Shown in pieces: positions 35,622-60,249 of a DNA stretch of 64,000 nucleotides; the stretch's first letter is position 1; each line of letters begins with the position of its first letter. The position numbers and the translations under genes are program-made. Source of the stretch: Balanoglossus misakiensis (Eukaryota; Animalia; Hemichordata); contig CM082584.2 of assembly GCA_040954595.2 (NCBI GenBank), positions 3,476,110 to 3,540,109 of the forward strand, given 5' to 3'. The notes under the pieces are model-generated. The model saw only the letters and a list, made by a program, of their open reading frames with translations. It was not told the origin of the DNA and made no database searches.

Positions 35622-36419
35622 GGTAATCAATGAATCAATCAATGAATCAATCACTCAATCAATCATTCATACATGTATCTTTCAATCAATCAATCATAAA
35701 TGTATCTTTGGCATTTTAATCAACAGAGAGTGTTTAAGGACAGCACAATATGCAGCTCTTACGTTTTGTCCAGCTCTGTTGTTGAAGCTACAGGTGACAA
35801 GGGGATCCTTGAGAGTGTGGTACTACGGCGCGCCAAGTGTTTCAAAATTATTTATCATTATTTTATAGAAAATTGATGTCTTTTAACAAAAAAAATACGT
35901 AAAAAACACAAAAAACTGATTGGTGGTTTAAAAAACAACGAGTGTAAAAAGTAATCCATCGTGGAGTCAAAAAAAAACAAAAACAACAAAAAAAAAAAAA
36001 ACACTAACACACACAGAAGAAAATCTCACCTATTGTAAAAAAAACCCACCAAGCTCACCAAAAAATACGCCCACAAGGCAGTTGAAAAAAAAAATCACTT
36101 ATGTGTCACAAAAAACTACGCGCACATTTTTCACGAAAAACGCACACTTCATCCCCACAAAAAATACACACAAAGTATTAAAAAGAACACTCTTTGAAAA
36201 AAAAGAGATGCTACAACTTGAAAAAAATGCATACCCCCAGAACAAACAACACAGGCAAACATAGAAAAAACACGAACATGTTAGCCATAAAAAACGGAGA
36301 TATTTGTCACCGAAAAAAAACCCCGCACTCATGTCACCCTAAAACTAACGGACCACTTTTAAAAACGCAGATGCACTGAGGTTGCAAAAATAAGCACATT
36401 TCTAATCCCCCGAAAAAAA

Positions 36420-36815
36420 AACAGGCAATTTGAAAAAAACGCACAGCAATTTGCAAAAAAAAAAAAAAATAGGAACATTTGTCACCCAAAAAAACCCAGG
36501 CAATTTGAAAAAAAAAAACGCAGAGCAATTTGCAAAAAAAAAATATATAGGAACATTTGTCACCCAAAAAAACAAGCAATTTGAAAAAAAAAAACGCAGA
36601 GCAATTTGCAAAAAAAAAAATATAGGAACATTTGTCACCCAAAAAAAACAGGCAATTTGAAAAAAAAAACGCAGAGCAATTTGCAAAAAAAAAAAATATA
36701 GGAACATTTGTCACCCAAAAAAACAGGCAATTTGAAAAAAAAAAACGCAGAGCAATTTGCAAAAAAAAAAAATAATAGGAACATTTGTCACCCAAAAAAC
36801 AGGCAATTTGAAAAA
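36420..36815 (+). repeat. ~75-80-bp tandem array in the left foldback arm (5 units)
   Basis: Unit CAGGCAATTTG(A)nCGCAGAGCAATTTGC(A)nTAGGAACATTTGTCACCC(A)n; five GGAACATTTGTCACCC cores counted. Confidence 0.9.
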
Positions 36816-38574
36816 AAAAAAACACGATATAAAATTTGAAAAAAAAATATATAGGCATATTTGTCACCCAAAATATTCAGGCAGATCCAAGTTGTAAAAA
36901 ATGGTATATTTGTCATCCAAAAAATAAAACAAGCGTGTTTAAAAAAACGAGCATTCAGTTGTAAAAATAAATAATAGTCTTTAACAACTTGAAAAAAAAA
37001 ACGGACGCACTTGAAAGAATAGCGTATGCGCATGCGCCGAAAAAAAATGAGTGAGAAATGCGCTCCAAAAAAAAAAGTGAGAGATTTTGCTAGAGGAGTC
37101 TGGGTAATCTTAAAAAAAAAACAGAGTGTGAAAATAAGTTGACTCGAAGAAGAGAAAAGAAAGGGGAAACACACAAACCGTCACACAGGACAAACAACAG
37201 TCTCCTCATCGCCGAGGCGTACGCGTGATGATATGACAAGTGTTTACGTCTGTGAGGTGGTGTGTGTATGTGTCGGATAGAACGCGAGTCGACTAGAATC
37301 CGAGTCGACTGAAGGTTACTGTGGTGGACGCGAATATGTGGTCGCCATTGTGGGATTCCTTCGTGAAGGAAGTGAAGCAACTTGTTCGGGACCACATAAA
37401 CATGATACCGTCATGATACCACACAGTCAAACATGACACCACTGGCACTACGTCCGCGGTTTGCTATTCTAGATTTGGTCTACAGAAATCGTGAAATTTG
37501 TAGCATAATCATCTGTGATGTAAGACAAATCTAAACCCCAAACGGCAGAACTGAACGTTGCCCATAACGTAAGAGTTGGCATGGTGCCCACAACTAATAC
37601 TGTCTTCTGTGCAGTACTAGCGAACTATACAAAAAATCAGCTCAGTTTTGACAACTTATAAATATTGGAAAAAAATATTTTATTTAGAAACTGTTTGTTA
37701 TTTGTTGTATTTTTCAAAGTGAGGTATGAATGACCTTCGGGAAATCGTTGTCATGTGTATGAATTCACCGCAAATCGTTTGTTTACATTTGGCTGGTAAA
37801 AGGTCAAATACCCCAAAGGAGTCGCTCAGTCCATAATTAGTTGATCGTCTCCGCGTCATCCGCGTTGAAACTCTGTGTACTGTACAAAAGAATATGGAAA
37901 GTTATTGTACGTTTCAGCATCACAGGTTACAGCAGGAGTTGTTCATAATGACAGTTCGTTCGACCATGTTAAACGCAACGCTCCGGTCATATGTGGTCCC
38001 GAACAAGTGGCTTCACTTCCTTCACGAAGGAATCCCACAATGGCGACCATATATTCGCGTCCACCACAGTAACCGTCAGTCGACTCGGTTTCTAGTCGAC
38101 TCGCGTTCTATCCGACACATACACACCACCTCACAGACGTAAACACTTGTCATATCATCACGCGTACGCCTAGCGATGAGGAGACTGTTGTTTGTCCTGT
38201 GTGACGGTTTGTGTGTTTCCCCTTTCTTTTCTCTTCTTCGAGTCAACTTATTTTCACACTCTGTTTTTTTTTAAGATAACCCAGACTCCTCTAGCAAAAT
38301 CTCTCACTTTTTTTTTTTTGGAGCGCATTTCTCACTCATTTTTTTTTTCGGCGCATGCGCATACGCTATTCTTTCAAATGCGTCCGGTTTTTTTTTTTCA
38401 AGTTGTTAAAGACTATTATTTATTTTTACAACTGAATGCTCGTTTTTTTTAAACACGCTTGTTTTATTTTTTGGATGACAAATATACCATTTTTTACAAC
38501 TTGGATCTGCCTGAATATTTTGGGTGACAAATGTGCCTATATATTTTTTTTTCAAATTTTATATCGTGTTTTTT

Positions 38575-39295
38575 TTTTCAAATTGCCTGTTTTTTGGGTG
38601 ACAAATGTTCCTATTATTTTTTTTGCAAATAGCTCTGCGTTTTTTTTTTTTTTTTTCAAATTGCCTGTTTTTTTGGGTGACAAATGTTCCTTTATATTTT
38701 TTTTTTTGCAAATTGCTCTGCGTTTTTTTTTCAAATTGCCTGTTTTTTTGGGTGACAAATGTTCCTATATATTTTTTTTTGCAAATTGCTCTGCGTTTTT
38801 TTTTTCAAATTGCCTGTTTTTTGGGGGTGACAAATGTTCCTATTTTTTTTTTTTCTTTTTTTGCAAATTGCTCTGCGTTTTTTTTTCAAATTGCCTGTTT
38901 TTTGGGGGTGACAAATGTTCCTATTTTTTTTTTTTTTTTTTGGAAATTGCTCTGCGTTTTTTTTTTCAAATTGCCTGTTTTTTTGGGTGACAAATGTTCC
39001 TTTATATTTTTTTTTTTGCAAATTGCTCTGCGTTTTTTTTTCAAATTGCCTGTTTTTTGGGGTGACAAATGTTCCTATATATTTTTTTTTGCAAATTGCT
39101 CTGCGTTTTTTTTTTTTCAAATTGCCTGTTTTTTGGGGGTGACAAATGTTCCTATTTTTTTTTTTTTTTTTTTTGCAAATTGCTCTGCGTTTTTTTTTCA
39201 AATTGCCTGTTTTTTGGGGGTGACAAATGTTCCTATTTTTTTTTTTTTTTTTTTTGCAAATTGCTGTGGGTTTTTTTTCAAATTGCCTGTTTTTT
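38575..39295 (-). repeat. Same tandem array in the right foldback arm (9 units)
   Basis: Nine GTGACAAATGTTCC cores counted. Confidence 0.9.
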
Positions 39296-39999
39296 TTTCG
39301 GGGATTAAAAATGTGCTTATTTTTGCAACCTCAGTGCATCTGCTTTTTTTTAAAGTGGCCCGTTAGTTTTGGGGTGACATGAGTGCGGGTTTTTTTTCGG
39401 TGACAAATATCTCCGTTTTTTATGGCTAACATGTTCGTGTTTTTTCTATGTTTGCCTGTGTTGTTTGTTCTGGGGGTATGCATTTTTTAAAGTTGTAGTC
39501 TCTCTTTTTTTTCAAAGAGTGTTCTTTTTAATACTTTGTGTGTATTTTTTGTGGGGATGAAGTGTGCGTTTTTCATGAAAAATGTGCGCGTGGTTTTTTT
39601 GTTACAAATTAGTGATTTTTTTTTGCAACTGCCTTGTGGACGTTTTTTTGGGTGAGCTTGGTGGGGGGTTTTTTGACAACAGGTGAGATTTTCTTCTGTG
39701 TGTTTTTTGTTTTTTGACTCCACGATGGATTACTTTTTACACTCGTTGTTTTTTAAACCACCAATCAGTTTTTTGTGTTTTTTACGTATTTTTTTTGTTA
39801 AAAGACATCAATTTTCTATAAAATAATGATAAATAATGTTGAAACACTTGGCGCGCCGTAGTGGTACAACAGAGCCAATTTACGAAAAGCTCATCATATG
39901 TAGTACGAGAATGATAATATTAAAAGACACTAAAAAGCCAACGTCATCTTTTTAGTCTTATTGTAGCATTAAAAAGTGTGACATGCTGAATGTTGACAG

Positions 40000-41867: not shown

Positions 41868-44800
41868 TCAAAGGTCCATCAGGGTCAAAGATCCATCTCT
41901 TGATCGTAGTGTTTTCCTCACTACCCAAGTCGCTGCAACCGGTGGGCGTGTACCCTGTGCCGAAACCCGGTGATAGTAAAACATTACAGTTATTTGAATT
42001 CCGTGAAAAACACAATTTTCTGAAACAAGAACAAAGTAAAAGTAAGAATAATATATATGCATATATTGGAAATAATATTGAGGAATCATATTACTCGTGT
42101 GGTCCGAGATGCATAGTACGATAACAATAAGGGGAATACCCGATGGGTTGGGTTAGCAGTTTGGGTATATGAATTTAATATTGGTGTATAATCGCACTGA
42201 ATTATGAAACACAATACTGTCGATATAAAGTAGGGGATAGGTCACGGGCTAAGCTTGCATAAATACTTTCACCGCAAATTCATATCGTAACAACGTATGA
42301 CATGTACCTGTACGATGCATTCATGATGACTTAGGGAGCCGTCATTATTTATGGCCTGGGGGGGGGGGTTACTCAAAAATTGGAAGGCTGCAGGGGGGGG
42401 GTTTCTCAAAAATTGTAGATGAAGAGGGGGGGGGTCACTCATTTTTGGGAAATGTATCAAAGTTTTTCAACTGAAAGATTTAGTTGTGTGCTGTGCAAGT
42501 GCTGCAGCGCTCCGCGACCTCCGGTCGCGGAACACCAGAGTGTCCACACTGCACTGTCAAAGTATTTTTCCCAAAATTTGCTGATAAAGGATTGGCCTGC
42601 TTGCCTGATCATGCATAAAAAACATATCTCCTTATTATATCAACAAAGTTTGATAATCATTTTGACTTTTAACGATGCCTGTCCAAATTACACAATGCTA
42701 CTTGATGGTTACTGGTTATGGGTGAGCTTTTACGGTAATCATTATTTAGTTGTGACTTTGAGATTGTTTTGTTGTTTCACCCTTTTCAATCCATCATGAT
42801 GCAACTGATGATCACCTACAATGTAGCAGGGTGAACCTGGAGTTGAAAGGTCTTTTACTACACTACTGTAATAGTGAACACCTATTGCCTGGCCATGAGG
42901 GCCATAGCGGCCGTTTATTACACCCGAGGGGCTGTGAGTTACCAGAGCATATGATTCTGGTAACTCACAGCCCCTCGGATGTAATAAACGGCCGCTATGG
43001 CCCTCATGGCCAGGCAATAGGTGTTCAATACAGATACATGTATTGATATGTAGTTGTTCCGGTTTTAGGGGGGGGGGGCCAGTCGAAATTTCTGTGTTGG
43101 AAGGGGGGGGTTTCTCAAAATCTGCATGCTTGGCAGGGGGGGTTTCTCAAAATTTTGGAGTTTCTAGTGTAATTCCTCCGACCCCCCCCCCCCAGGCCGT
43201 AAATAATGACGGCTCCCTTAGAAGGGGTGATTGCGTTTTCAAAACTTACTTCGGTCTTGTCCTTGAGTTGTTCGGCTGACTCAAGTAAATTTGAGAAGGT
43301 TGGTCTGTCATTGGGATCCTTTCTCCAACAAGAAAGCATCAGATCATACCTAAACAAAAGATCAAGAGTGTGTAACAACACATCCATCCACAACAAGTTC
43401 ACATGATCACATATATCCACGTATGATTAGATAGATTAGCTTGTGGACTGTAACAAATGTTGATACGCGGACATCAAGAAAAACATGCAAAATTAATTTG
43501 TCTTATTAAATATTATGGTGTTGACAGCTAATATATCACAAGCCCTTTTCATTACATGCAGGTCCATATTTCTGGTACCAATACAATTGATCAATTAAAC
43601 ATAGGAATGAGCCAGAGGATGCGTACTGTAACAATGAATCAATCTTGTTTGCAAACCTGCCGATGTAACTATTTAATAAATATACCAAGAATGACCTTTT
43701 GTCAAATTAATTAATATATTTTTGTCACACACGAAACTGTGTAACACCTTCAATATAAGTGGTGTGTGTCTGCAACCCATTCGAGGAAATTGTTCAATAT
43801 GGAAATTACCACTGGCAATGTATTTGTTTATTTGATTGACTATAGGTTTCCTGGAAGATGCGTGTTCGCCCAAGTTAATATTTAAATTGCTCTGCCTTTC
43901 AACTTACAGCTCGTCACCACAGTGGTCTGGTTTTGGCAGCCTGTAACCGCGTTCGAGCCTCATAATAACTTCCTTTCGGTCAAGCCCTTCGAAAGGGCTA
44001 TGAGCTGAAATGGAGAAGAATATTGATAAAGTGTATATTTCTGAATACGAAAATTCAGCCGTAAACAAATGACCTTCATAAACTGCCAGTAGGGAGACTG
44101 TAGGCCTAAGAATGGAGGTTGAAACAAAAAGGGGGTTTTGTAGTTGTTTTGGTGGTGGTGGTTTTGGTGGTGGTGGTGGTGGCGGCGAGGGTGGTGGATA
44201 GCTGGCTAAGCCAATTTTCGACCCAAAACCAAGGTGTACCTTGGTAGGCCTAAAATATTGGCCACATTGTGAAAACCACGGAGATCTATGATATTGGATG
44301 ATGTTTGATTGTACGGACATGACATGATAGGATGGGGATGGGGCCAAAATGACATACCGAATTAAGCTAATCACAAACACACTGTACACGAAAAAAATTA
44401 AGATTTGTAGTTCTGTTTGTCTGTGTCCATGTGATTCTATGTCTTTGTTTCATTGCCTAGAACAAGTTTGTCTTCGTATCTCTACCTTATCCATGTTGTC
44501 GGTCTGACTGCCTGTCTGTCTGTCTGTCTAGGTATCAGTCTACCACTTCTGTCAGAGTATGACTCTCTGTTTCTGTCTGACTCTTTGTCTCTGTTCCTGT
44601 TGTCACGTCCTTCTCGTTCATAATATGTGTGTGATTGCATTACAAATCACTGTTGAAGAGCTCAATTTTGTTAGGAAAAAAAACAAGCGAATATAATGAC
44701 CTAAGGTGACTATTTCCCAAAGCACAACACCGAAAGACCATACATCTGTCTTCACATCAAATGTCCATTTGGTGAGTGTTTCCAGTGCTAACCATTGGAA

Positions 44801-47800
44801 TGGAAGTTCATCCTGTTAGGATAATACAAATCGATCAGAATAAAATACTTTACATTAAATTGCGAATGTGAAAATATATAATCAATAATTTGATCAATAA
44901 CGAGTACATGTACAGGGTGTACCTTCTTTGCCAAGTCTTGTAATCTTCCTCCGTAGGTAATGTCACTTGTGTAGGTGAAGTTAGAAATTTTGCACGTTTT
45001 CCCTGTAAATACCAATATGTGATTTGCAGCAAGGAATCTGTGTGTGATCTGTGAAGTAATCCAAGGGTTGCATTGTCTATAGCGAATAAAAAACTATCAA
45101 CTATAATTAATCTAAACCAAAACCGTAAGTCAGGACAATTACTGTTGTGTCTGTGTGTGGTGGTATAGCACTGTGACAACAACAAAGACATTGGGGAACT
45201 TTGATACGAGTAGCACAAATATTGTTCAGGCGGTCAGATTTTTGAATCGCCAAGTAAGCAGCGCCCACTGCATATACTGATCACTATCTTACCCCCAATA
45301 ACGAAAGGTGCTCCATGCCGTCAGCAATGTCGGCAACAAATGAAAGTAATTGTCTCTGGGAATCCACACTCTCATCTGATAATATCCCTTGGCGGTTTTC
45401 GATCAGGTATTTTCGCAGATTTCCGTGTTCTGCGTAGTCAGTCATGTAAAACGGTGGGTCTGAAATAAATGGTTGTATTAATATGCACCATTTATTTTCA
45501 CATCTAATTATTGTATGTCCTGCTAAATTTATCACACAGCATACTACGCAGGTGTATTTGTTTCTTTGTTGGTGATATACATTATTTTATGTTACGCCAT
45601 AGACCCCAGAGAGGGCCTGTAGTTACACAGAAGATAGCGTATTAATTAATTTGACCAAACATTAACACGAATACTGTTCAACTTAATTTTGTGGATTAAG
45701 AATGCGCATACATGCAGACTGTTTCTATCGACGGATCACTGGCCACAGTTAATGATTATTATAAACGACCTTTCCTAAACACTGACCTTTGTCCAAGCCC
45801 TCCTCGACCAAGAAAGGTGACCCAGACACAGCGCACACGTAAACAAAAGAGAAAGATGGCTGCTCACTGAGTCAACTGAGCGGTTTTCGATCGATTGTAT
45901 CGGCATTTGGGGCGTTTTGAAAGCCAAGTAACATGCAAAACAAGAACTAACGGAGATGTAAGATGTATAATAATAAGGTTATTACGAAAATACCGCAATG
46001 TATGCACTCGGACATTAGCGCAGCGCATCGCCCTCCGCTGCGCGTCGGACGATACTCAGCGCTAATGTCCTCGTGCATACTTTGCGGTATTTTCGTAATA
46101 ACCTCATAGTATTTTACCAACCAAACTATTGTGTGGAGAACACAGCATTATAACCTACAATACCGTACAGGCGAGTGATGCAAATGAAGAAAGAACGGTG
46201 GGAACAACTTACTGTTTTCTGTAGAATATGCTAAAAGCCTAACAACATTGGCGTGTGGTGATATGGATTTCATAAGCTCGACTTCTCTCTCCAGGGCTGA
46301 TGTGTCTGTTGTCTCACCTGTGAAAATAGTAATACACTTGTGAATTAATTGCACAATGCCTTCGTTTAGCGAATAAAAACCATCAATGGCAATCTAAACA
46401 TTGGCTCTTGACTGATAAACCACTTGAAACACACACACACACACTAAATTTGCGATTTCACACTGCTGCCACTGGTTATTTGTTTCAGTAATTTCAGAAA
46501 TTATCTCCCATTATACAAATACTGACCATATTGAAATTTACCTGACAGGATTTTGACGACAACTTGAACAGTCTGTGGAGGGTCGAGCGAGTCAACGATT
46601 TTAGCTTCTGCTCTGAACACTTGACTGAATGCCCCACTGTAAATTGCATCTGCCACAGAAACAATGTATTCGTCCATTCTCAGCTCTCTTTGTATAACCG
46701 GTGCTTTCGATTCAGGTTTAAGTGCTACACTTCTCCGGGCAGATTCTCTCCGAGGGAGAAAATTCTGCAATGTAAATGCAATTCTGATATTATAGTAAGG
46801 AAAATATTTCTGATGTATACTTTGAATTAGAACACTATACTGATGATTTAACTTGGTATGATTTGATTTGATTGGGACACTTTTGTAAAATATCATTAAT
46901 CGTTAGGTTAATTTTTGTCACTGGGGTCACAATAACATTTCAAAACTATGCAATTTTTAGTCAATAATGTAGAAATTATACTGACACACATCACTGAGAT
47001 GGCGAGGTCTTTGAATGTGGGTCGTTCTCGAGGCTTCTGTCGCCAGCATGACAGGATCAGGTTGTATCTGTAGGTGTAGGGCACATATACAAAATAGATT
47101 ATAGTCCAACACAGACTGGCACTGAAACAGCCTCGTTGTAGGATAATACGTGTCGGAGACACTGTAACGACAAAATGGCGGTACATTCTGTCTGTCTGTC
47201 TGCCTGCCAGTTTGCCTGTCTGTCTGCTTCTTGGTTTGTCTCCCTGCATGTCTGTTTGTCTGTCTGTTTGTCTGTATATGCCTGGCTGTATATCTGTGTC
47301 TTCCTGCCCACCTGCCTCGTCGACGTGCCTGCCTACTTGACTGCCTACCTACATGACAATACACGACGAATTGTCATGTTTTGATTCAATAGTCAACTCA
47401 CATGTCATCTGCACCGTGATCTGGTTTGAGTAACCGGTAACCCTTCTTCAGCTTCACCAGTACTTCATTCAGTGAATCCTCAGAGTAGGGTAGGCGACCT
47501 GCATGTCAAGAAATTAATTTTATTGACAGATACTTGTTGCCCCTACATTTCTACATACACAAGGACAAGTAAACAATCCTTAGAATGTCTTACCAAGGGT
47601 GAACACTTCCCACAATACAACACCGAACGACCATACGTCAGTGAACTGGTCAAAGGTCAGTTGGGTCAATGACTCGAGTGCCATCCATCGGTACGTAAGA
47701 TCGTGCTAAAAAGAGAAAAACAACATTATACATCGGTTTTGGGGGGTATTTCTGTTTTTTCTAAACAATATTGAACACAAAGTCATTCTGAATGTAACTG

Positions 47801-50800
47801 GGCATCACTTAGCCCAACTTGAAGGTGTCAATTGTGTGACTTTAACATTTAATGCTACCTGTTTCGTGAGTCTGAAGAACTGTCTGTCCCCAATAACATC
47901 CGACGAATAGGTGAAGTTCGATATTTTGCAAGTCATTCTGTCGCAAAGTAACACGTGATTTGTTGCCAGATACCTGAGTATAACCTGTTGAAAGAAATCA
48001 TTGCAGTTTTGGGAATTTGTATTTTGTGTGTTGTATCATTAGCCAGAGTAATCACAGTGTACATTTAATTTGTTAGTTTTAATAACACGTTTATATGTTT
48101 ATGTATCATGGGTGACATTATTTTCACTCTCCATTTTTATTTTTACATTAACTGTGAACTATTGAGACTAGTGAAAGTGAAAATAATCTCTATTGAATAC
48201 CTAAATTCCTCTGCAATATCATACCCTCTTATGATCAAAACAAACGTACTTACATTATTAGAAGACAGATATTCCATTCCTTTTACAATATCCCAGCTAA
48301 ATGCCAAAAGCCTCTGCCTCATTAAAGTAGCACCTAATGAGAGTATTACGTCGTGGTGTGTATGCATAAAATTCCTCAGGTTACCGTATTGTGGTTGCTC
48401 TGTTAAAAGGTATGGTGGATCTGAAACATAATTTCAAAACTTTCAATGTGATATAGCTGTTGGTTAAGTAGAAGATGTTCAACTCATTGCAATGGGATGC
48501 TAGGCAAGTAGCGTTTTGTTCAAAACTAGACTTATTGAATAAATTGTAACCTCTACATTGCAATTGCTGAACTGCTACAGGTCATAAAATAAAACTTGCT
48601 TAAATTCTTTGAGAGGTATAGGATGCTTATATAGTCTCGAAATTCATATATACAAGTTTTGGTTTCAGTATCATAAGTATGTGTTTTTGTTTGATAATTC
48701 AACGGGGAGATGTCAACCGAACGTCACGATCCGAAACTATTGTCCGAGGTCGTGCTAAAACTGTAGCCAGAAGTTTCGATAGATATTGTAAATGATTATT
48801 GTGATAACCTAGTGATTCGTGTGTCCATAATCAACTTAGGCTTACAGAACCGTATTTGATCTTTATAAGTAACACAGAAGGTCTGTTTCTCTTCTCATGC
48901 GTTATAACTCTAATAAATTTCAACCAACAAAGGGGACATTTTACCGGGAATATGACACCAATAGTCCTACTCACCAACTTTTGTACAGCACCCCAGGAGA
49001 CTGTTAACGTTTGTATGTAAATCGAGAGACTTCATGAGTTCGATTTCTCTCCTCAAACATAGCGCTGATTCCCTAGTGTCTGCAATAATGTGAGAAAACT
49101 TTCAGGTGTGTTCACCGTCTTTTTTGACAAAATTTGTATTCTCAATTTTAATAGTAAGTGAATATGAAAGTTGCGTTTAGCAAAATTCTTATTATCCAGG
49201 CGCATGATACCAACACATTATACGTTTAGATGGCACATAGTTAAAAATATTTACAAAAATGGCATTTGTCTGTTAACACTCTTCTTAATTTTGTTATCAT
49301 TGAAGCTTTTATTTTGTTCCCAAGCTCTCTGTCTTCATATGTTTCACATGGAATTTGATGCACATTATCCTATGAAAATGTACATTACCTGTTGGTGATT
49401 TGATAAAAATATTGGTTGACCCCTCCTTGCCTCCGATGAACCAAGCTTCGCCTCTATGTATCTGGTAGATGTCGCCCACAAAGACACGTTCTGTGATGTG
49501 CAGTCTGTCCATCTCGACCTCAAAAACCCGCTGTCCTGGGTACAAGTATTCCCCTTCAGCCAGATCGTCGATGTCCGGTTCCACGTATGGACCCTCAGAT
49601 ACACTCGCCTGCCGATGTTCACATGGATTTTAGAATTATCAGTGATAGGATGGGTTGAAAAGTAATGAATTCGTATTGTGGCGTCTCTGCGATTATTAAA
49701 ACGTCCCTAAGATTATTAAAACGTCTCTAAGATTATTAAAACCACTACAGGGAACAAAAGCTACTAAGCTATTGTAAATATAAGGCATTTGGTACTGGTT
49801 TCTTGCTAAAGATATTGCTAGAAAGCTTGGCAAGATTGCATCCCTACAATATACGGACTCAACGTTACACTTCTTTCTGATAATGAAAAAATGAAATTAC
49901 CATTGTGTGAAATAAATCAGTAGACGCAGCCTCATCGTATTCATGTATGCTTTCACTTTCTGCAGCAATACTTCCCCTGTCTCTCTCGTCTCTCACAACG
50001 GTTGGTATCTGCTCGTATGAATGAAATATTTGTTCTGGTTCATCTGGAAAAAGAATGCATGAGGGAATATAGTTTGGAAAATGTGGTGCTTCCTATAGGG
50101 ATGCACTTTGTGTTTAAATGGGAAATAGAAAGTATAATATTAATTCACCTGGTTCAGTTGATTCATTTGTTCCTGTTTGTGAGGCCTCATCTGCAATTAA
50201 ACCGACATATAAAATAAGAAAAAAACAATAATAGCAATTAAAAGCCACAACAACAACAGCAACAACAAAGTAGAATTCAAGTTTATCTTACCTTGAGGTA
50301 TAGCGGAACGAAATCTGCGAAACCGTCTGTAAACTGCACGGAATATTAAGAAGAGATAACATTATAGCATTATATCATTTTTGAAATACACACACATATA
50401 CATACATACACACACACTCTCCGTATGTATGTGTGTGAATGTATGTATGTATGTATGTATGTATGTATGTATGTATGTATGTATGTATGTATGTATGTAT
50501 GTATGTATGTATGTATGTATGTGTGTATGTATATTGCACCACACGTCAAGATCAATGCTAAAGATACACATACCATTTCATCTGAAAGTCCTTCAGTTGA
50601 TACTCTAGCAATGTTATTATGCACCATAGCCTTGTAATTTACGCAAATGAGAAAAATTAATTTGAAACAACTTCTTTGAAAAAGGCCCAAAATATCAAAA
50701 TTTAGAAAGTCGAGAATTGGTCATCCAGATACTAACCTCTGTGCATCCCACGAGATTTATACAAAGTAATCATAATGATAACAACCAGTAAAGTTATTAC

Positions 50801-51085
50801 GACGACGGCAATTACAATAACAATGGTTACGTGCATCACCGGCTTGTTGTTTTCCGGGTTCCAATCTATAGGAGGCAATTTAAACATGTTTCACAAGATC
50901 AAGGTCAAATGCAGGTTGACTTGAACATATAAAGTACACCACTCTACATTAAATGTATATTACAGTGATCTGTTGGCATTCATTGTTATAAAATACTTAC
51001 TGTTGTTTTCTGTGCTCCGATTAGGAAACTTAGTCGATCCAAGCATTGTGTAATTCATGTCCCCTCTCCTGCTGATCAGAGACAT
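41868..51085 (-). CDS. Single-pass membrane protein with two tandem tyrosine pseudokinase domains, ~783 aa, 20 coding exons: 51085-51001, 50865-50737, 50333-50292, 50190-50149, 50043-49901, 49593-49389, 49079-48975, 48420-48254, 47984-47859, 47705-47594, 47498-47402, 47067-46986, 46764-46542, 46317-46213, 45459-45293, 45048-44923, 44812-44701, 44004-43908, 43349-43250, 41954-41868
   Basis: All junctions are GT-AG and phase-compatible, with no stops. TM helix VTIVIVIAVVVITLLVVIIMITLY followed by basic YRRFRRFR. Both domains have PTK hallmarks (RWMALES / QWLALET, TDVWSFGVVLWE, GYRL.KP, CWR..P..RPTF). First and last exons and the exon-12 donor (46986 vs 46995) are less certain. Confidence 0.88.
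42334..43217. mobile_element. PIF/Harbinger-type MITE (TTA TSD) in the last intron of the pseudokinase gene
   Basis: TTA|GGGAGCCGTCATTATTTATGGCCTGGGG ... CCCCAGGCCGTAAATAATGACGGCTCCC|TTA. Confidence 0.88.
42875..43027. repeat. Near-perfect 153-bp palindrome nested in the MITE
   Basis: TGAACACCTATTGCCTGGCCATGAGGGCCATAGCGGCCG...CATATG...CGGCCGCTATGGCCCTCATGGCCAGGCAATAGGTGTTCA. Confidence 0.92.
45976..46104. repeat. Intronic palindrome / hairpin repeat
   Basis: AGGTTATTACGAAAATACCGCAA...GGACATTAGCG pairs with CGCTAATGTCC...TTGCGGTATTTTCGTAATAACCT. Confidence 0.85.
50439..50522. repeat. (ATGT)n microsatellite
   Basis: Directly visible; intronic. Confidence 0.95.
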
Positions 51086-52577
51086 TCTTATGCTAAGTAA
51101 CCGTTACGATAAACTCGGCTTGAAGCAACTTTATGTGTTGATGTGATGCAGCATGCTCACCGATTAAAGCCTCTGTCTTTTCTGCTGTGCGGTAAACATG
51201 AAAATCTGTCCAATACTACTTGAAACACCCCCTATCAGGTCGACAGCTAACTTATTCAAAATAAGTGTGGTATTTCTGTAACACCGCAGGTGTATGAATA
51301 TCCAGGTACGCCTATGAGATTCGTATTTTCCAAGAACCTCCTGTCAGAAAAAAACCATACTGTAATATCGTTCTCGTGCAGGGAATTCCCAGGGCAGTAC
51401 CAGAGTCTGCGCTAAGCCCAGTAGTAAAATGATTCGTGATACCTCGATTGTCCATACAAAGTCCAACATATAAACAATATGGTGTATACACAGAATATGT
51501 TTCACACCATAGCGATTGTACCCACTGTACACAATTGTGACTGCACTTTGCCAGATTATCGCCTTCTGATGTTACCGGACATGTTTGTTTGTTCGAAGAA
51601 AGATAGCCAAACATCTCCCCATTTCATTGGCCGAAACGTGCTTTTGATTTCCATATTAGTCACCAGTTTCTGGAAGTGGTAACTGTCCATGGTTAACCAA
51701 CCCGGGTCACATTACGTTTACCTTTCACCCCAACAGAGGTCACATCACAGATGCACGACCAGGTAAGTGGTCTTGTGGTCAAGTTGATGAAATTGGCCGC
51801 ATACAATACTTGTATAATGTGCCATGACAACGAGTATAATATGTATAAATAACTGTTTGTTATTTGGACAGAAAAATCCACCGATCACGAATTATCTCTC
51901 TGTCACAAGCATAAAATATACTAGAGCAGTCAGATCACCTAAACGGCCAATATCACACCGCAGATGTCGTGAGCATAATTGTCGAAACTTCGTTACAAAA
52001 CGATTTCTGGGTACACGAAAACGCATCTCTAAATAAGGTATGAATCAACCATTATTATGTATTCTGAACGGACTCGTCACTACTCTCGAATGACCCTACA
52101 GTTGTATTTCCCCTTCCATGTCCCTAAAATTTCTACCACTAGCTGTTCAAGGGGTGAACTACGTCTTTCGAGCCAAACGAAAACACAAGCCCACAGAACT
52201 GGGTTATGAGTCAATCCTTATTATGCATTTGGGCGGACTTGTCACTACTCTCAAAGGATCTCATTTCCTTGTACCGTGTTCCCAAACTTCCCATCACTAC
52301 CAATTATTCCAAGGTTTAATTCTACAAGTACGTCACACAAATATCAGAACAAAGTCAAATCCATAACAAAATATATGCACTTCTGGCAGAAATTCCAAGA
52401 GGTGATGTTAGACTAGGCTACACTAAACTAGTCTAGTCTAGTTTAGTCATGTCTAGTCTTCTTTTTACCGCATGTAAATAAACATGTAAATGAAATAATT
52501 GAAATATTACCCGTGGTTAATCCCACGCAATATTTAGAAAAATGATCTCAAATATTCTATGATATAATTTGTTGCAG

Positions 52578-54704
52578 TTTGGGCATCGGATGTATCAACA
52601 ACAATGACCCCAGATATCAAGTCTACTGTCCCAATCTCATCGACTAGGGTGAAGACTAGTAGTTACAATACAACTACCGTTAGGTGTACCAGGAAGCGAC
52701 ACAAAAACCATTTACCTAACAACTGAAGAGATAATCGGTGAATATTCCTCAACTTCAAGGCAAAACGTCGACCCCACCGCTACAGCGTTTAACAATGGAG
52801 CAAGTTTAGTGGGCTCGAACACCAATCCTGAGATTTCAACCCAACCCACTTCAACCCACTTGGAAATAAGTCAACATATCATTTCTAAAGAAATTAACAC
52901 AACGTGGAGACCAAGTGTTAGTCCTTGATACAGTCCCCCCCCCCCACCCCCATGTGAATTTGCATAACAAGTTATTAATAGGTATCAATAACAACTATTC
53001 CGAGTCTAAAAACAAACTGGGTATCATTTTCGAAGCTATCAGAACAGACAGAGAAATGACCTTTTTGACACAGACATTAATGGGATATATGCATGGTTCT
53101 CCACTAAGATAAGGCTGCATTCACAAACACCTCTGGAGGGGGGGGCGGGAGAATTCAATTTTTTTTACCGCTAATTTTCACATGCCCCCCTTCCGAACTG
53201 CCAATATTTTCAAATCCCCCCCTTCCGAACTGCCAAAATTTTGAAATCCCCCCCATTTTCTTTCACAGAGCAAAACACATCACCTATCTATCTTGTAAAA
53301 AGAAAAACAGCGCTCCCATGAAAAGAATTTGAAACTGATGTTTCCCCTCATCAGTGGGTATTAAAACTGAACATTGTTTTTATTTTTTAAGTACATATAT
53401 TTGTATTCTGTGTTGGGAGACATTGTAAACCGAGAATTGAAGGGGTGGGTTTGGGAGGGGTGTCCCCCTCCCACGTAAGAAAATTTTCTAAAATACAGAG
53501 CTCAAAGCTGCATTTTAATGAACCCGGCAAAAGCAAATTAACTCAACTACCGGTATGTTGGGGAGGACAAATTTAACCGTCGCCGCTCAAAGTTATCATG
53601 GGGTGGGGCAAGTCCCCTGACCTGGGACACTAGATAAACCAGTCAATGATTGAAAGGTGTTGATGAATGGAGGGGGTGGGTGTGGGAGGGGGTGTCCCCC
53701 TCGCACATTAGAAAATTTTGTAAAATAAAGGGCGCGAAACTGCATTTTTGTGGACTCAAAATAAATATTTAGTCGTTAAAGTTTTCAAGTCCCCCCCCCT
53801 TTCAGTCCCTAAATTATTTCAAATCCCCCCTTACATACCCTCAATTTTTTCAAATCCCCCCCCCCTCAATTCTCCTGCCCCCCCCCCCTCCAGAGGTGTT
53901 TGTGAATGCAGCCTAACATCACTCCTTTCTGTATCTTTTGAAAAAAGGGCATTTGGCAGTTCTAGTTATTGTTCTCTTAGTTCAATCTTTAAAAAATATT
54001 GCAGATGGCAACGTGTCTACAGCAACAGGTCCATCATTAGCTATTTGCTGAAACCGCTTGTAAATGTTTCTCCCTCTCCTTTTTTGTATCTAGATACAAC
54101 ACACATGTAGAAATTCACGATGCAAGTCAGTTTTTTTGGAAATTTTGTTTGTCATTTTCACCTTAGATGGATGATGACAGTGACATAAATCGGTGCTGTC
54201 AAATAGCCAGGTCAACTAACTGGTAAGTTACTTTCTGTGTCAGGGATACCGTTGACAACACTTGCGCCGAATGAATGAATATGTTGACATAGAATCTCTT
54301 CTACACTCTACCCGAAAGAAAACGAGAAAACGTCATGCAAGCAAAGGAATTTGCCTCTTCAGAGAGAGGTAATACCACAGTACGAAGGGCACTATGACTT
54401 ACTCCAAGAACCAAATCGTAGTGGAGTTCTTAAACAGACATGCAATAGCGACAGTGACAGAAGTCCATCTTATGAGAGCGCACCCCTTTTGCCCTGTTGC
54501 TGGCAGGGTGGTGGCCTATATGGCGATTGCGTCACCCCAGGCCAGTCAAAGAAGAGAAAAGTCTCTAAAGATTCTACAACAGATACTGGTGATGTAAAGA
54601 TACACATTTATGAAAACCTACCGCTTATAGAAAACAGTCTTCTCTCGGACAGCCAACGTCGGTTTACAGGAAATAACCATACAGACGCACACGCTGTTGC
54701 ATGA
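52578..54704 (+). pseudogene. Decayed gene fragments: Ser/Thr-rich mucin-like exon and Tyr-motif-rich terminal exon
   Basis: After the acceptor at 52577: WASDVSTTMTPDIKSTVPISSTRVKTSSYNTTTV, a frameshift, then ...STSRQNVDPTATA...ISTQPTSTH. Small exon at 54167-54222. Terminal region with EYVDI (shifted frame), HYDLL, SYES and IYENL. No TM exon found. Confidence 0.4.
53113..53913. mobile_element. PIF/Harbinger-type MITE (TAA TSD)
   Basis: TAA|GGCTGCATTCACAAACACCTCTGGAGGGGGGG ... CCCCCCCTCCAGAGGTGTTTGTGAATGCAGCC|TAA; perfect TIR of more than 30 bp. Confidence 0.9.
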
Positions 54705-57656
54705 TGATGATATTTTTGGAGCTTTCAAAATTCTATACTGCAGTCTACTCATTCGTGGTTAAGATAAAAATCAGTCAAACTGGAGGAATGACTTTCTCAA
54801 ATTGGCCATGCTTTTGAGTATTTCATTCAGCGTTTTTTTCTGTGTTGATGTTCATAAAAGTGTGAGAACGACAAATACACTGTCGTCATCTTTCTCTCTG
54901 CGTGTGGATGTGTTTGTATTCGTTCAACTTTATTCGCCATTGTAGATAATTAATCAGACAAGAAATTTGTTTGTCAGTCTGATATCCCTCCCCATTCTGG
55001 CTTCATTTTGCAATGCCTATTGTTATTTCATTCTCCGTCTGTTTCCAAACACAATATTATCTTCATTGACCTCCCCGTTGTGTAAAGATGTTTACTTCAC
55101 CAACTATTCCAAGAAGCTGGGATAACGGGACAGTTTTATATCGTCTATCTTAATCAATAAACTTAAGATACACATGAACTAAAGATGGAAAAGTTAACAC
55201 TTTTAGTTCGCAAATACATGTCATTGACCATAAGTTGGTGGATTGAAAGCATCCTTACTTCTACAATGATAACATCAGTTAAATATAAACGATATAACGT
55301 ATTTACTCGGTGGGGGACATTTTGAGTCAACTATAACGCCGAAACTTAGTGAGGAAAGGCGGGCTTGAACGTTCCGAAATGAGTCAACACATTGGAATGT
55401 TCTTAGTTTCGATGCTGGGTGCATATCATGAGTTTGCTGTGCCCATCGATGATTTATTAGGTTGATAACCTCTGACATGCCCCTTTGAAATTTCTCTTTG
55501 GGGGAAAGGTTGAGTGGGAGTTATTTAAAGCTACTATACCATGAACACCTGTTGCAACAAGCAGGGCCCGTGACTAGACTTCATTCACATGTATTAAAAC
55601 AAAGCTTATCAACGTGAACATGTCTCGTTTTCCTTTTTATCATGATTCCTTATCACCAGAAAAAAATTGTAGACCAACAACACTTGAGGTGCATATTGTC
55701 CAATTTATTCAGCTGCTAGTCATATTGTCCTGCCCACTCGTGTTGCAAATTCATCACAAGTGTCTGCAATGAGATTCGAATATTATTGTTGAAACGAACA
55801 GCTCTAACTTTTACATAGCTTTTTCTCATACAAGAATAAATTACAGCCTGTGTGAAACAGTCCCATCGATTCGAAACCGAACCGAGTACGTGTTAAGACA
55901 TGCTTGTGCCATAAGTCTGACATGTGTATATCACGTGGGGCGTACTCGAGTGTGTTCCTGCGGGTTGATGTGACCGTGGGTTCAACGCAAAGTTACGGTG
56001 CTTGCTTTGTCTATATTCTTCAAGGCTCACAGAGCTAGCGCGGTTGGGATTGTCACATCTAAACCCTGTCTTTATGGACCTTAGGTTTAAAGTGGGAATT
56101 TTATTGGACAATTACACAACTGATCAAAGCGTATACAATGGCGTGGTATCACAGACATTGTCTGTATTGTCGACTTATTTGTCCTACCAGAAAAAAATGG
56201 ACTGGGTGACAGGTTGATCAAAGACCCCAGTGATTTGAGATAAGCTTGTGCTTACAATATGACACACGCTGACCACTGCTGGCAAAATTGACTGCAAATA
56301 AAACAGTGCCACAGGGTATCAGATTATCACTACAGCAGTGCAAATACAGAAAACCACCAGTCATGACACCAGTCGGCGTTTGTGCAGGGTCATAACCGGT
56401 AATATTTTGTAAACAGCAAACAGAAATATTGTGTTGAAAAAAATATATGGCACCGTTTATTTGCATTAGGGCTAGCTTGTTTACTGAGTTCATACCATGC
56501 CAATATTTCGGTTGCCTACTCGAGACCTCGAGGAAAACATTATACTCCCCATCGCTATACCAACGAAAACGCCAATTATGTCTCTTTTTTATTCCTGCCA
56601 ACTGATTTCCCAAAGACAAGATTATCCTGTTACCCATTTGCATGTAAATTGTACTCTACCCCTTTACATTTGGCGTTAGGTTTCAGCTTCTAAGCGGTAC
56701 GAGTTTACTTGTTACAAAGGAATCGGGGTTTGTGCATCAAAGCCAAGTTTTCGGCTTGATCACCGTTGCAATGTTTTTCTTGGTGGCGTCATTTCGTCGA
56801 CAGACAAACTTCAACTAGTTATTTATGTATTTACATATACAACGCGTCAATTTTATAATGTATCGGAATCTAAAATAAGACATGATACATGTAAGTTGGG
56901 GGAGTGGCTATATCCGTGTCAACACGGCCGCGTCCATTTTTAAATGACACAGACAACTTACAGCCTATCACCCGTGCGTTCCAGTTTATCATTGCAATTG
57001 AATGAGTCGAAGCATGTCGATACTAAACGATTTTAAGACAAACAAGTGTAACTCGCTTGGCTTACGTGGGTAAAAACCATTGCGTACATTTGCAGACTAT
57101 GGCATCTTCAGAAAAACAATAAATCACACGGAGGTTACCATACTGCCATTACTTTAATCTGCTGAGCGTAACTGGGAATACCCATGACCGTCCCAGTATT
57201 AGACGATACACCTTTACATTGCTGCTATTCTCGACAAACCTAGCACTGTCTCAGAGCTTTGAAGACAAGTGAAGCTGTGAACAATCTGGACAAATTGCCT
57301 TTGTACGGTAGGTCTTTACGGATCTTGTATATAAACCACATAATTGGCTTGTCAACGACGATCACAACACCCAAAACATTGTTTCGCCTTGAAAACGAGG
57401 TTGTAATTATAGCCACGTCTATCTGCGTTATGTAGATAACGACTGACAAAGCCAGCGAAAAGAGAGACTTACAGATGTGAACGCTGAATACTTGCACATA
57501 TAAGAAGAAACTCTATTGCAAGAAAACGCTTTGAGTCAATCGTGTGGTAGGGACCAAAATCAATTTATGAAAATACATTGGTAAGTAGATATATGGTTCC
57601 ATGTGAGTTTTTCGCGCCAGCGTTCACAACAGACATATGTACTATGTACCTGTTAA

Positions 57657-57989
57657 AGGGACACAGTCTCTCTCTCGCTGCCCTATTTCCATAAATTATG
57701 TTTGATACAAGATACTGTTTATGTTAATGTACATGTGGATATATAGTGATACAATGATCAACCACCCACTTGTATGATATGAGAGTAAAAACTTGCCCAA
57801 AATGAATAAATGGTAAAGAACGATTATTCATTTTGGCGGGTTTTTTCACTCTCCTGTCTATAAGAGGGATGGAAGTTGTGTATGGTTGAACGCTCATTCG
57901 CTATATATCCCCATGTAGAATAAGAAACAGTGTCTTGTATCAAATATAATTAACGGAAAAAAGGGCAGCGAGAGAGAGACTTTGTCCCT
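57657..57989. mobile_element. Full-length TTAA-TSD MITE (Kolobok-like AGG termini) with long imperfect TIRs
   Basis: TTAA|AGGGACACAGTCTCTCTCGCTGCCC ... GGGCAGCGAGAGAGAGACTTTGTCCCT|TTAA; inverted similarity extends ~100 bp. Confidence 0.85.
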
Positions 57990-59880
57990 TTAAGGATTGA
58001 TACAGTGGGTGACAGAAAGAAGGGCATAGATTACCAGACAGACAGGTAGAGACGAACAGATAGTCATGCACGTAAGAGTGTAATAAAAACCTCTCTGCAC
58101 TGCTAAATGTGCGTTACACATTTGAATTCAGTATGGCAGTCACAAAATAACACCTTGGACCGGAACTATTTTGTATGTTGGCATAGGTGAAAATAAAACA
58201 GCTTCACGTATGGCGTTACTTGCCCATTGGTGGACTGAAATAGGGGTTAGAGGTCAAGTAGCGTACCCCGTCTAGTCAGTGTGGAGAGTATTGTGCTTAG
58301 TATTCAGGACCGTGAACACGGTATAGTTTTCACGCGGACGGAAATTACTGTTTTCCATATCCTGTTGGATTATACCACATGTTGGATTGCGCTGGCATGT
58401 CTTGCCGTTACTGAGTGTGAGCTAACATCCTTTATTTGATGACAGTGTGTGTGTTACCAGGATAACTTGGTGGAAAGGGGGATCAAATCGACCAGTTCGA
58501 GATATAAGGTAGGCCTGCACACGTATTAATTCAGATCACCTAAACTGATCAGAAATAACTTCCCTATCTTGCTTGTCCTTGTGCATTCAAAACCCTTTTT
58601 AATAACGTTAACTTTTCATACATTCTCTGCGAACACCTCCAAGGTCTTAAAGTGGTCCACACGTTTTGTCGGCAATAACAACGGTTCGACTTGAACACAA
58701 AATGTGATAATCTATCGTACTTAGGCTTTCTTAACACGATTGCTCTTGTTGTTTGTCATCATAGGCATTGGATTATTATTTTATATATTCAAAGTTTAAA
58801 CAGAAAAGCATACATTTTGGACGCCATATCCAGAGTATTTATTTGAATGCACTAATCGGGACATTTAATACCACGCTGTTTTTTCGCGCCGTTTCAGTCA
58901 CATGAAAGTTGTACAATGGGGACCAAGTTAAATAGTTAATAATTTAAACTATATTGTTATCTTCTGTTATTCATTAAACGATCGACTGATAACTCTATGA
59001 GTATAACGTGCCAGCATGTCAAGGTTACTAAAATAAAACCAATGAAGTAGTAATTACAATCAGCAAAAACCCACATTGCGACAATAGAAGGTGCTTTGAG
59101 TCCCACTCTTGGTAATTTCATATTTGTCTATGGCTACATTCAAATCACAGTAATAGGCTGAATGATATAGTTAAGAGATCATGAAGCTTTATAAAAAAAA
59201 ATAAACACTAAGCTTTATACAAAAATATATACTAAGCTTTATAAAAAATAAATACAAATAATGTTGTACAAAAACCGTTAACACACTATTCATTCGTGAA
59301 AGCTCAAAAATTTTGCATTTTTTTTTCAATTTATAGTATACTAAAAACTACATTAATTATGCAGTTAAGCACACAACTATTCATTGACTAAAATTATGTT
59401 CAGATAAAGTCTTACTACAAGAAGAAATATGACGTTCCTGATAAAACCATTTTAGTTTTTACTTGAACATTTCCAACCTGCCTGTATGAACCAAGGGAAT
59501 TTTTTGGAAATGATCACTTCACCGTTTTTAACATTCTACTGGATGACAACACATGATAAACATTTGAGAGTGAATTAGATGTATATGTATTGTATTAAAA
59601 TCAAATAAAATTACAGTTTTTATTTTAATTAAGATACCTACTGGAAGCAAATGGTTCAATACTATGCACACAAACACGAATGGTTTGTTAATAATTTCAC
59701 TTGAACAACTACATTTGTATGCTTTGATTCAATTTGTTAATGCAATAAGAGACACTAAATACCACATAAGGTGAACCTCCTACTAAAACTCTGTTTAAGT
59801 TTACAATTTAAATTCTTTCCTACCTAATAGAACCAAAGGAAAATGGTCGGATAGATACACTTACATGAGTCCAGTATTTT

Positions 59881-60249
59881 ATTTCAGTTTGATGAATAAA
59901 CACTTGGCAGTCTGATTCTACCTATCGAAAAAACACAAGCATGGTTCGAAGAATGTGAAACAGGAATTAATAGCTGGCAGTGACTTGAGTGAATAAAGCC
60001 TCTAAAACAAGTTCAAACTATGTCATATTTTACTCTTAATTTTGCCACACAAGTACAGGCAGTGTAATATATTTCAGTTTGAATAAACACTTGGCAGTCT
60101 GATTCTATCTATCGAAAAAACACAAGCATGGTTTGAAGAATGTGAAACAGGAATTAATAGTTGGCAGACTGAGTGACTTGGAGTGAAAAAAGCAAGTTCA
60201 AACTATGTCATATTTTACTCTTAATTTTGCCACACAAGTGCTGGCAGTG
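59881..60249. repeat. ~190-bp direct tandem duplication
   Basis: ATTTCAGTTTGA..ATAAACACTTGGCAGTCTGATTCTA...GCCACACAAGT begins at 59881 and again at 60071. Confidence 0.9.

Follow-up and report, generated by a model that had tools for sequence, protein, structure and literature searches.

Gene structure

The window, the whole 64,000-nucleotide stretch of Balanoglossus misakiensis contig CM082584.2 that was analysed, contains a gene of 20 exons on the minus strand (51085-41990), whose spliced frame is open for 769 aa. The predicted protein starts with ~42 residues and a transmembrane (TM) helix; a juxtamembrane segment containing tyrosines follows, and then two domains of tyrosine-kinase fold (D1 and D2). 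The exons are as follows.

51001..51085, minus strand: exon 1; start codon and short N-terminal stretch bearing two N-glycosylation sequons, no signal peptide; donor gtaagt; predicted N-terminus
50737..50865, minus strand: exon 2; lone TM helix at about 50830-50762; acceptor phase 1
50292..50333, minus strand: exon 3, 42 nt; basic juxtamembrane segment, frame set by phase, no close homologue coverage
50149..50190, minus strand: exon 4, 42 nt; juxtamembrane spacer, no close homologue coverage
49901..50043, minus strand: exon 5; acidic part of the juxtamembrane segment, carrying YEQI (50017) and YDEA (49939)
49389..49608, minus strand: exon 6, 220 nt; YVEP and YLYP sites, degenerate Gly loop of D1, beta-3 Lys
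48975..49079, minus strand: exon 7, 105 nt; alphaC of D1 with its Glu
48254..48420, minus strand: exon 8, 167 nt; D1, hinge to alphaE
47859..47984, minus strand: exon 9, 126 nt; D1 pseudo-active site, HRD to LRY, Asn to His, DFG to NFT, Tyr at DFG+1
47594..47705, minus strand: exon 10, 112 nt; D1, APE-Glu and alphaF
47402..47498, minus strand: exon 11, 97 nt; D1, alphaG region
46986..47067, minus strand: exon 12; end of D1, favoured donor 46986
46542..46764, minus strand: exon 13, 223 nt; duplicated from exon 6, with linker, Gly loop of D2 and beta-3 Lys
46213..46317, minus strand: exon 14, 105 nt; alphaC of D2 with its Glu
45293..45459, minus strand: exon 15, 167 nt; D2, hinge to alphaE
44923..45048, minus strand: exon 16, 126 nt; D2 pseudo-active site, HRF, Asn to His, NFT, Tyr at DFG+1
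44701..44812, minus strand: exon 17, 112 nt; D2, APE-Glu and alphaF
43908..44004, minus strand: exon 18, 97 nt; D2, alphaG region
43250..43349, minus strand: exon 19, 100 nt; end of D2
41990..42019, minus strand: exon 20; short tail and stop codon (41992-41990), matched by the C-termini of Ptychodera flava models P0039 and P0015

All 20 exons are bounded by AG/GT and, as the first-pass annotation had claimed, they join into one intact reading frame. Its length depends on the donor of exon 12, the weakest in the gene, where five GT sites were tried: 46986 (gtcagt), which is preferred, gives 769 aa, 46995 gives 766 aa, and the other three lead to early stops. Reading through exon 12 meets a stop near 46910. 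Both the inter-domain junction (46986-46764) and the lack of upstream ectodomain exons are predicted from splice signals and related gene models. The gene had been taken to end at 41868. This is wrong, because the peptide of the last coding exon (42019-41990; KIVFFTEFK, stop) matches the P0039 C-terminus, KLVDFTEYK, and an alternative last exon reaching 41868 was dropped in its favour. Searching exon by exon with Pfam PK_Tyr_Ser-Thr, a check proposed in the first-pass annotation, matched D1 and D2 alike: of the 14 domain exons, 10 scored at E<=0.5, and six of these passed the curated cut-off.

The single TM helix (hydropathy 3.76) starts at residue 43 of the predicted chain, in line with the ~40 aa that had been claimed to precede it. 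The juxtamembrane segment had also been described as Tyr-rich; it is enriched, with 7 Tyr in 112 residues (6.2%) vs 3.6-3.7% in the kinase domains, but only modestly so. It holds four candidate phosphotyrosine sites, YEQI, YDEA, YVEP and YLYP, and a YExI/L motif is found in the juxtamembrane region of 13 of the 18 family proteins listed. The phosphopeptide pYEEI is a Src-SH2 ligand. We rejected the label of an ITAM-bearing receptor, since the protein has no match to YxxL/I-x(6-12)-YxxL/I, even with a relaxed pattern; the latter was matched in 6 of the 18 family proteins.

Two pseudokinase domains

All the motifs previously quoted for the two domains were found on the minus strand: FVGDIY (49482), REIE (49050), LRYLATNH (47978) and NFT (47918) in D1, and YSGAFS (46641), REVE (46288), HRFLAANH (45042) and NFT (44982) in D2. 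The HRD Asp is replaced by Tyr in D1 and Phe in D2, and the DFG Asp by Asn in both. D1 and D2 are thus both pseudokinases by sequence, as proposed, and are predicted to lack phosphotransfer activity. To this can be added the catalytic-loop Asn, which is His in both domains. Neither Mg-binding residue remains, the Gly loop lacks glycines 1 and 3, and the beta-3 Lys, alphaC Glu, APE-Glu and C-lobe are kept, here and in the relatives. A JAK-type active C-terminal kinase was rejected on the grounds that D2 lacks the catalytic Asp, the loop Asn and the DFG Asp.

An AF2 model of P0039 has a mean pLDDT of 79, with residues 1-42 and 325-355 below 50. Each of its domains matches FGFR/RET in Foldseek, with a TM-score by target of about 0.8-0.9, and the top match is PDB 9p9u, an EGFR kinase-domain duplication. 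From this model, both domains are predicted to fold, and the juxtamembrane segment and linker to be disordered. A pTM of 0.49 and the disordered linker give no sign of packing between D1 and D2.

Exons 6-11 and 13-18 have the same sizes (220/223, 105, 167, 126, 112 and 97 nt) and the same phases; D1 and D2 are therefore the product of an old intragenic duplication. A recent duplication within the B. misakiensis gene is ruled out by rejection of its D1 and D2 as a single clade (p-AU 0.0002). Both domains were already catalytically dead before the duplication. Between D1 and D2, pS is 0.77 (saturated) and pN 0.37. When the 613 domain codons were randomly substituted to 79% identity in a neutral simulation, the frame stayed open in only 1 of 2000 runs, so the open frame is not due to chance. 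These comparisons argue firmly for purifying selection on the gene and agree with the earlier suggestion that selection maintains a double-dead, membrane-tethered protein.

A family of dead receptor kinases in acorn worms

With the two motif exons as query, a word-index search gave no match; a full HMMER scan identified the relatives. A search for two-domain relatives, which the first-pass annotation had proposed, showed that P. flava has five distinct RefSeq models of this form: P0039/P0001 (P0039 is XP_070549796.1), P0053/P0170 (XP_070549781-784, 'JAK2-like'), P0054 (XP_070549496-497), P0172 and P0015 (XP_070551904.1). In P0039, P0053/P0170, P0054 and P0015, the tandem dead domains are of the same FGFR/RET type and have the same replaced motifs. 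Identity to these models is 44-62% per domain; to P0039 it is 169/271 in D1, 152/272 in D2, 8/32 in the linker and 31/44 (70%) in the distal juxtamembrane region. P0053 shares with the B. misakiensis gene a short N-terminus, of 15 residues in P0053, followed by a TM helix and a Tyr-rich segment. These models are automatic, fragmentary predictions, most of them lacking an N-terminus, and among the five genes a TM helix is present only in P0053/P0170. For example, P0003 is D2 alone, and a second copy of P0053 is split in the annotation into P0021 and P0171.

The RefSeq names of the two-domain models, Cad96Ca-like and JAK2-like, are misleading. JAKs have FERM/SH2 domains and no TM helix; we rejected this label because a TM helix is present and P0053 matches only kinase families in Pfam (PF07714 and PF00069). 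Cad96Ca combines a cadherin ectodomain with an active kinase, and its label was rejected because 15 family proteins gave no Pfam cadherin match and the catalytic residues are missing.

In a tree of 43 rows, 14 of them active kinases and none a distant RTK outgroup, the dead clade is separated from the active kinases with support of 100/100. The D1 (100/99) and D2 (100/94) clades both fall within a 98/97 clade shared with the single-domain models P0023 and P0010, which have short N-termini without a signal peptide (TM helix at 78 in P0023, and at 36 in P0048, the longer isoform of P0010). P0039 is at most a candidate one-to-one orthologue, since its D2 does not group as sister of the B. misakiensis D2. 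Among Vegfr/Pdgfr/Ret/Fgfr/Tie group members, kinase sequence and fold are closest to FGFR/RET, again in trees without distant RTK outgroups, and the nearest single-domain matches by sequence are RET and FGFR1/2, in agreement with the fold comparison. Compared by phase alone, the introns (1,1,0,0,1,2) would be compatible with part of the Vegfr series 111010012 given in the accessible part of PMC4898815.

The catalytic Asp is found in none of 31 family domains (27 have Tyr), the loop Asn is His in 30 and the DFG Asp is Asn in 29, counts taken over related, non-independent domains that include three near-duplicate pairs. Tyr occupies DFG+1 in 28/28 family domains vs Leu in 20/21 active kinases; the beta-3 Lys is retained in 24 of the 25 domains covered and the alphaC Glu in 26/26. 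The replacement residues (Tyr, His, Asn and the DFG+1 Tyr) are near-invariant over three acorn-worm genera. Given these replacements and its place inside the acorn-worm HRY/NF dead-RTK clade, we assign the gene on sequence grounds to a multi-gene acorn-worm clade of FGFR/RET-type pseudokinases; it is not an orphan. Ectodomains of Ig or FN3 type are common in the family.

A family-profile search, with 7995 candidates scored, gave seven proteins at E<=1e-50, six of them from acorn worms, which is a weak guide to taxonomic limits. Non-exhaustive searches of Glandiceps and Saccoglossus did not find the two-domain form. The text and one supplement of a Saccoglossus poly(I:C) paper contain neither 'kinase' nor 'Cad96'; 'cad96' is absent from the portion searched of a Schizocardium single-cell supplement, whose FGFR-like rows could not be mapped to the dead-RTK family.

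Possible functions

We give about an even chance to a single-pass membrane protein, with an outer part of ~42 residues and two dead FGFR/RET-type domains, that acts as a co-receptor or scaffold phosphorylated by an active tyrosine kinase. By analogy with FLOR-1 of C. elegans, it would be trans-phosphorylated on YExI-type sites. Since there is no ligand-binding domain, a partner would probably engage it sideways in the membrane; candidates are FGFR/RET-like paralogues that are active, relatives that bear Ig domains and Src-family kinases. SH2 proteins might then be recruited to the phosphorylated YEQI, YDEA, YVEP and YLYP sites, both dead domains could serve as docking or allosteric surfaces, and the conserved Tyr/His/Asn/Tyr set may lock them in a fixed inactive shape.

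A fairly unlikely alternative is that the dead domains attach to active FGFR/RET-like paralogues and dampen or adjust their activity, with the tyrosines secondary. The retained beta-3 Lys, alphaC Glu, APE-Glu and C-lobe would suit such an inhibitory or allosteric regulator, and active Cad96Ca-like paralogues (P0068, P0083 and P0094) occur alongside the family models in the same species. Allosteric regulation is among the possible roles given for STYK1, PTK7 and ROR in the accessible sections of PMC13519141, and FLOR-1 also sets OLD-1 levels, according to those of 10.1101/2022.12.15.520564. However, the juxtamembrane tyrosine motifs are kept across the family and the distal juxtamembrane region is as conserved as the domains, which fits a docking output.

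It is similarly doubtful, though conceivable, that the gene belongs to an undescribed acorn-worm multichain system, possibly for immunity or self-recognition, made up of clustered Ig-bearing chains and ectodomain-less dead kinases with one or two domains. Ligand-binding chains, for example that of the adjoining Ig V/C2-TM gene, would signal through the double-dead chain as a subunit, and the Tyr/His/Asn/Tyr site would be a new kind of switch controlled by ligand or phosphorylation.

We consider it improbable that the gene model is partly wrong, either because the Ig exons at 62797-61687 join exon 2 or because intron 12 is retained and D1 stops near 46910. The phase 1 acceptor of exon 2, the ectodomains of other family members, the weak exon 12 donor and the single-domain pieces among the RefSeq models would all allow this. 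However, the Ig exons come with a TM exon and a stop of their own, and lie ~11 kb away vs introns of 95-1230 nt in the present gene; exon 1 has a consensus donor, and short N-termini recur within the subclade. The minus strand from 51000 to 60300 holds no convincing coding exon by a loose filter that recovered 10 of 18 internal exons at their true ends. At 221 nt, intron 12 is too small to hold the start of another gene together with its TM helix.

Also improbable is a repurposed active site, in which the fixed Tyr/His/Asn/Tyr set and the Lys-Glu pair bind a nucleotide or other ligand or catalyse a non-kinase reaction. The replacements are indeed not random, but the losses of the Mg-binding residues and Gly-loop glycines count against it, bulky residues may merely fill the pocket, and binding of ATP and Mg is seen in only about 25% of pseudokinases, according to the accessible sections of PMC13519141. 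Finally, a decaying pseudogene with random catalytic losses is largely refuted and very improbable, given a frame open through 14 domain exons, limited non-synonymous change beside saturated synonymous change and identical replacements in three genera.

The first-pass annotation held that the architecture was unlike any characterised family. In the literature searched, we found no description of the acorn-worm dead-RTK family or of any double-pseudokinase receptor, although amphioxus kinase and pseudokinase-census work may treat related families. Even so, it is a variant of the receptor tyrosine pseudokinases, and unstudied P. flava models share its two-domain form. A literature match for two pseudokinase domains concerned the YukC dimer. 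The gene belongs to a mislabelled acorn-worm family, with at least two dozen dead RTK models, in which the inactivating residues are themselves conserved. This family offers a natural comparative series for pseudokinase biology and a candidate receptor system for hemichordate signalling or immunity, in a non-model animal and with predicted function only.

Comparison with known systems

A precedent is FLOR-1, which requires its tyrosines downstream of the active paralogue OLD-1 and keeps the K/E pair, but has lost HRD-Asp, loop Asn and DFG-Asp as well as its Gly loop (10.1101/2022.12.15.520564, accessible sections). Both FLOR-1/OLD-1 (the KIN-16 family) and the acorn-worm genes represent a lineage-specific, clustered RTK expansion that includes a membrane pseudokinase with K/E. 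In contrast, FLOR-1 has one domain, belongs to a nematode family and has other replacements (HRALALRS); its immune role is demonstrated, whereas one for the B. misakiensis gene would be hypothetical. STYK1/NOK also has a short ectodomain and a TM helix (here at residue 43 from a predicted N-terminus), but a single kinase domain (PMC4898815, accessible part).

EGFR kinase-domain duplication, as described in the available portion of PMC9953181, likewise places an in-frame tandem copy of the kinase exons inside one receptor gene. It is somatic and oncogenic, with active domains that form an intramolecular asymmetric dimer, whereas the B. misakiensis duplication is germline and old, with both domains dead and no predicted packing. 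JAK JH2-JH1 and the plant tandem kinase-pseudokinase proteins share the arrangement of two tandem kinase folds including a pseudokinase, but in them one domain is dead and the other active (PMC13519141, accessible sections). As far as these sources go, the tandem kinase proteins compared (JAK, plant TKPs and EGFR-KDD) retain at least one live domain. Here, two already-dead copies have been retained through gene duplications, which suggests that pseudokinase surfaces alone can merit doubling.

Gene model and protein layout

On its minus strand the window carries a spliced animal gene of 20 exons with AG/GT borders, running from 51085 to 41990. With the exon-12 donor at 46986 it gives a single open frame of 769 aa, and with that at 46995 one of 766 aa; early stops followed with each of three alternative exon-12 donors tried. 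The predicted protein has a 42-residue N-terminus that contains two sequons but lacks a signal peptide, a single transmembrane (TM) helix beginning at residue 43, an acidic juxtamembrane segment of 112 residues with seven tyrosines, and two dead tyrosine-kinase-fold domains, D1 and D2, the exons of both of which match Pfam PK_Tyr_Ser-Thr, a check that the first-pass annotation had proposed. The chain of 20 exons encoding a short N-terminus, a TM helix and two kinase-fold domains, as read there, does join in frame, and all the motifs cited are found in the window. Its 3' end at 41868 was wrong, the last exon being 42019-41990, in agreement with the C-terminus of the Ptychodera flava relative P0039. 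The gene is real and intact.

An acorn-worm family

A profile built from two motif exons and searched against 1.84 billion representative proteins matched 38. The HR[YFWN]L...N[FL]-type motif was present in 25, and the 24 of these assigned to species all came from Ptychodera flava, Saccoglossus kowalevskii or Glandiceps talaboti; the remaining 13 were active-kinase fragments, multi-kinase proteins or non-kinase repeats. The window's own protein was absent from the matches of the protein searches. Automatic annotation names family members as, for example, Cad96Ca-like or FGFR-like, and many of them have Ig or FN3 ectodomains. Several P. flava models share a contig size (1,688,405), as do six Glandiceps models (26,684,518), which suggests that the genes are clustered in both species.

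The suggested search for orthologues with two NFT-type domains led to five distinct two-domain P. flava genes (P0039/P0001, P0053/P0170, P0054, P0172 and P0015), all automatic and fragmentary predictions, with a TM helix only in P0053/P0170. P0053 ('JAK2-like') has the same plan as the window protein: a 15-residue N-terminus and a TM helix, then a segment rich in tyrosine, then two dead domains. P0003, P0021 and P0171 are pieces with a single domain.

Separately, P0002, P0004, P0024, P0026 and P0036 contain 4 to 10 tandem tyrosine-kinase-like domains (10 in the 2911 aa of P0002), with degenerate and intact catalytic motifs mixed; the four tested were placed outside the acorn-worm clade.

The pseudo-active site and its likely output

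Residues were counted over 31 family domains, which are mutually related and include three near-duplicate pairs. None keeps the catalytic Asp (Tyr in 27, Phe in 2, Trp in 1, Asn in 1); the catalytic-loop Asn is His in 30 of 31 and the DFG Asp is Asn in 29 of 31, and the first Gly-loop Gly is kept in 0/24. The beta-3 Lys (24/25), alphaC Glu (26/26) and APE Glu (31/31) are present. With duplicates removed, DFG+1 is Tyr in 28/28 family domains vs Leu in 20/21 active kinases, and 20/28 family domains have Phe in the activation-loop Tyr column. The pseudo-active site is thus conserved across the family, not eroded. Phosphotransfer requires a catalytic base and metal ligands; judged from these residues, it is very unlikely here, because the base and both metal ligands are lost.

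Docking would be the likely output of such a double-dead membrane protein, because a ligand-binding domain and catalysis are both absent. Of the 18 family proteins listed, 13 have a YExI/L motif and two of those without it are truncated; pYEEI is a Src-SH2 ligand. No canonical ITAM was found in the window protein. That the protein serves as a trans-phosphorylated co-receptor or scaffold is a reading to which we give an even chance. A role as inhibitor or allosteric tuner is improbable by comparison. It is less probable again that the gene model is wrong: a loose exon scan gave no convincing ectodomain exon between the window gene and the upstream Ig V/C2-TM gene. Marginally behind this comes repurposing of the pseudo-active site.

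Features in the rest of the window
60316-62797, minus: separate gene of Ig V-like and C2-set exons, TM exon, short tail and own stop, on the strand of the window gene and ~9-12 kb upstream of it
52577-52928, plus: Ser/Thr-rich, mucin-like exon-shaped stretch behind a good splice acceptor, with a change of frame near 52680; a pseudo-exon or sequence error
3592-4638 (plus), 11085-12900 (plus), 18465-19716 (minus): three copies of a GT29 sialyltransferase, nearly identical, of which two are direct and one is inverted, with frame breaks in some (stop-to-stop listings)
13663-14663, minus: broken endonuclease/LINE-like fragment
26316-27289, plus: pentraxin-domain gene
32340-34494, plus: peptidase M28 gene
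35822-39862: large inverted duplication, arms of A/T-rich tandem units of 76-81 bp, with a central segment between
42330-43221 and 53112-53914: a MITE-like element each, with G/C-run terminal inverted repeats of 39-40 nt, the first inside intron 19 of the window gene and containing a palindrome (42872-43030, 75-nt arms)
45965-46117: second palindrome, inside intron 14 of the window gene

The tail of the Ig V/C2-TM gene has no signalling domain, and its product is a possible ligand-binding partner chain. Among 174 proteins, the best match of its V domain was the Ig domain of P0020 (E 4.8e-9), a partial Saccoglossus model in which that domain is joined to a family pseudokinase. This hints at linkage between the two gene types, in a single model that may be a mis-join.

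Duplication and selection

Exons 6-11 and 13-18 agree in size (220/223, 105, 167, 126, 112 and 97 nt) and in phase, and D1 and D2 therefore stem from an intragenic duplication. In P0053 and P0172 the juxtamembrane motif is still present ahead of D2, so the duplication took in that exon.

The tree held 43 rows (a 62-row set minus 20 near-duplicates, redundant outgroups and long branches, plus one D1 fragment), without a STYK1, Tie or insulin-receptor-group outgroup. The split between 29 dead domains and 14 active FGFR/RET/PDGFR/Cad96Ca-like kinases had support of 100/100. Every D1 row fell in one clade (100/99) and every D2 row in another (100/94), and the two grouped with the single-domain relatives P0023 and P0010 at 98/97. 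P0039 D1 was the sister of window D1 (99/88); P0039 D2 was not the sister of window D2. A recent duplication within the window gene was ruled out, the constraint of window D1 and D2 to one group being rejected (p-AU 0.0002). It follows from the tree that a single duplication, of a domain already dead, came before the paralogue radiation. N-termini in the D1/D2 and P0023/P0010 subclade, where modelled, are short and signal-less (window 42 residues, P0053 15, P0023 77, and 35 in Glandiceps P0048, a longer P0010 isoform).

D1 and D2 share 90 identical residues over 201 gap-free codons, with pS 0.77 (synonymous sites saturated) against pN 0.37. When the 613 domain codons were randomly substituted to 79% identity, the frame stayed open in 1/2000 runs. 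The gene is under purifying selection, as first proposed, and on these two results a decaying pseudogene is highly improbable.

Comparison with known systems

AlphaFold2, run on P0039 with an alignment of 28 rows, gave a model of mean pLDDT 79 and pTM 0.49, with pLDDT <50 at residues 1-42 and in the linker 325-355. Each domain by itself resembles FGFR/RET kinases in fold. Over the whole chain, EGFR-KDD and JAK/TYK2 matched best, with an rmsd of 15-25 A; as modelled, this likeness lies in the possession of two kinase folds and not in a common packing.

The window protein is not a JAK, despite the 'JAK2-like' label on P0053, nor Cad96Ca, despite the Cad96Ca-like labels on relatives; nor is it STYK1, which has one domain where the window protein has two. 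It belongs to none of FLOR-1, STYK1 and EGFR-KDD, although its build resembles the last. No account of the family or of double-pseudokinase receptors was found in those parts of the literature covered, a scope outside which two key surveys lie. We place the protein as a receptor tyrosine pseudokinase variant, inside an acorn-worm expansion so far unreported in that literature. The best precedent comes from C. elegans: the membrane pseudokinase FLOR-1 has lost residues in a similar pattern, and its tyrosines are required downstream of the active OLD-1 (10.1101/2022.12.15.520564). By analogy, the window protein would work most like FLOR-1 or STYK1.
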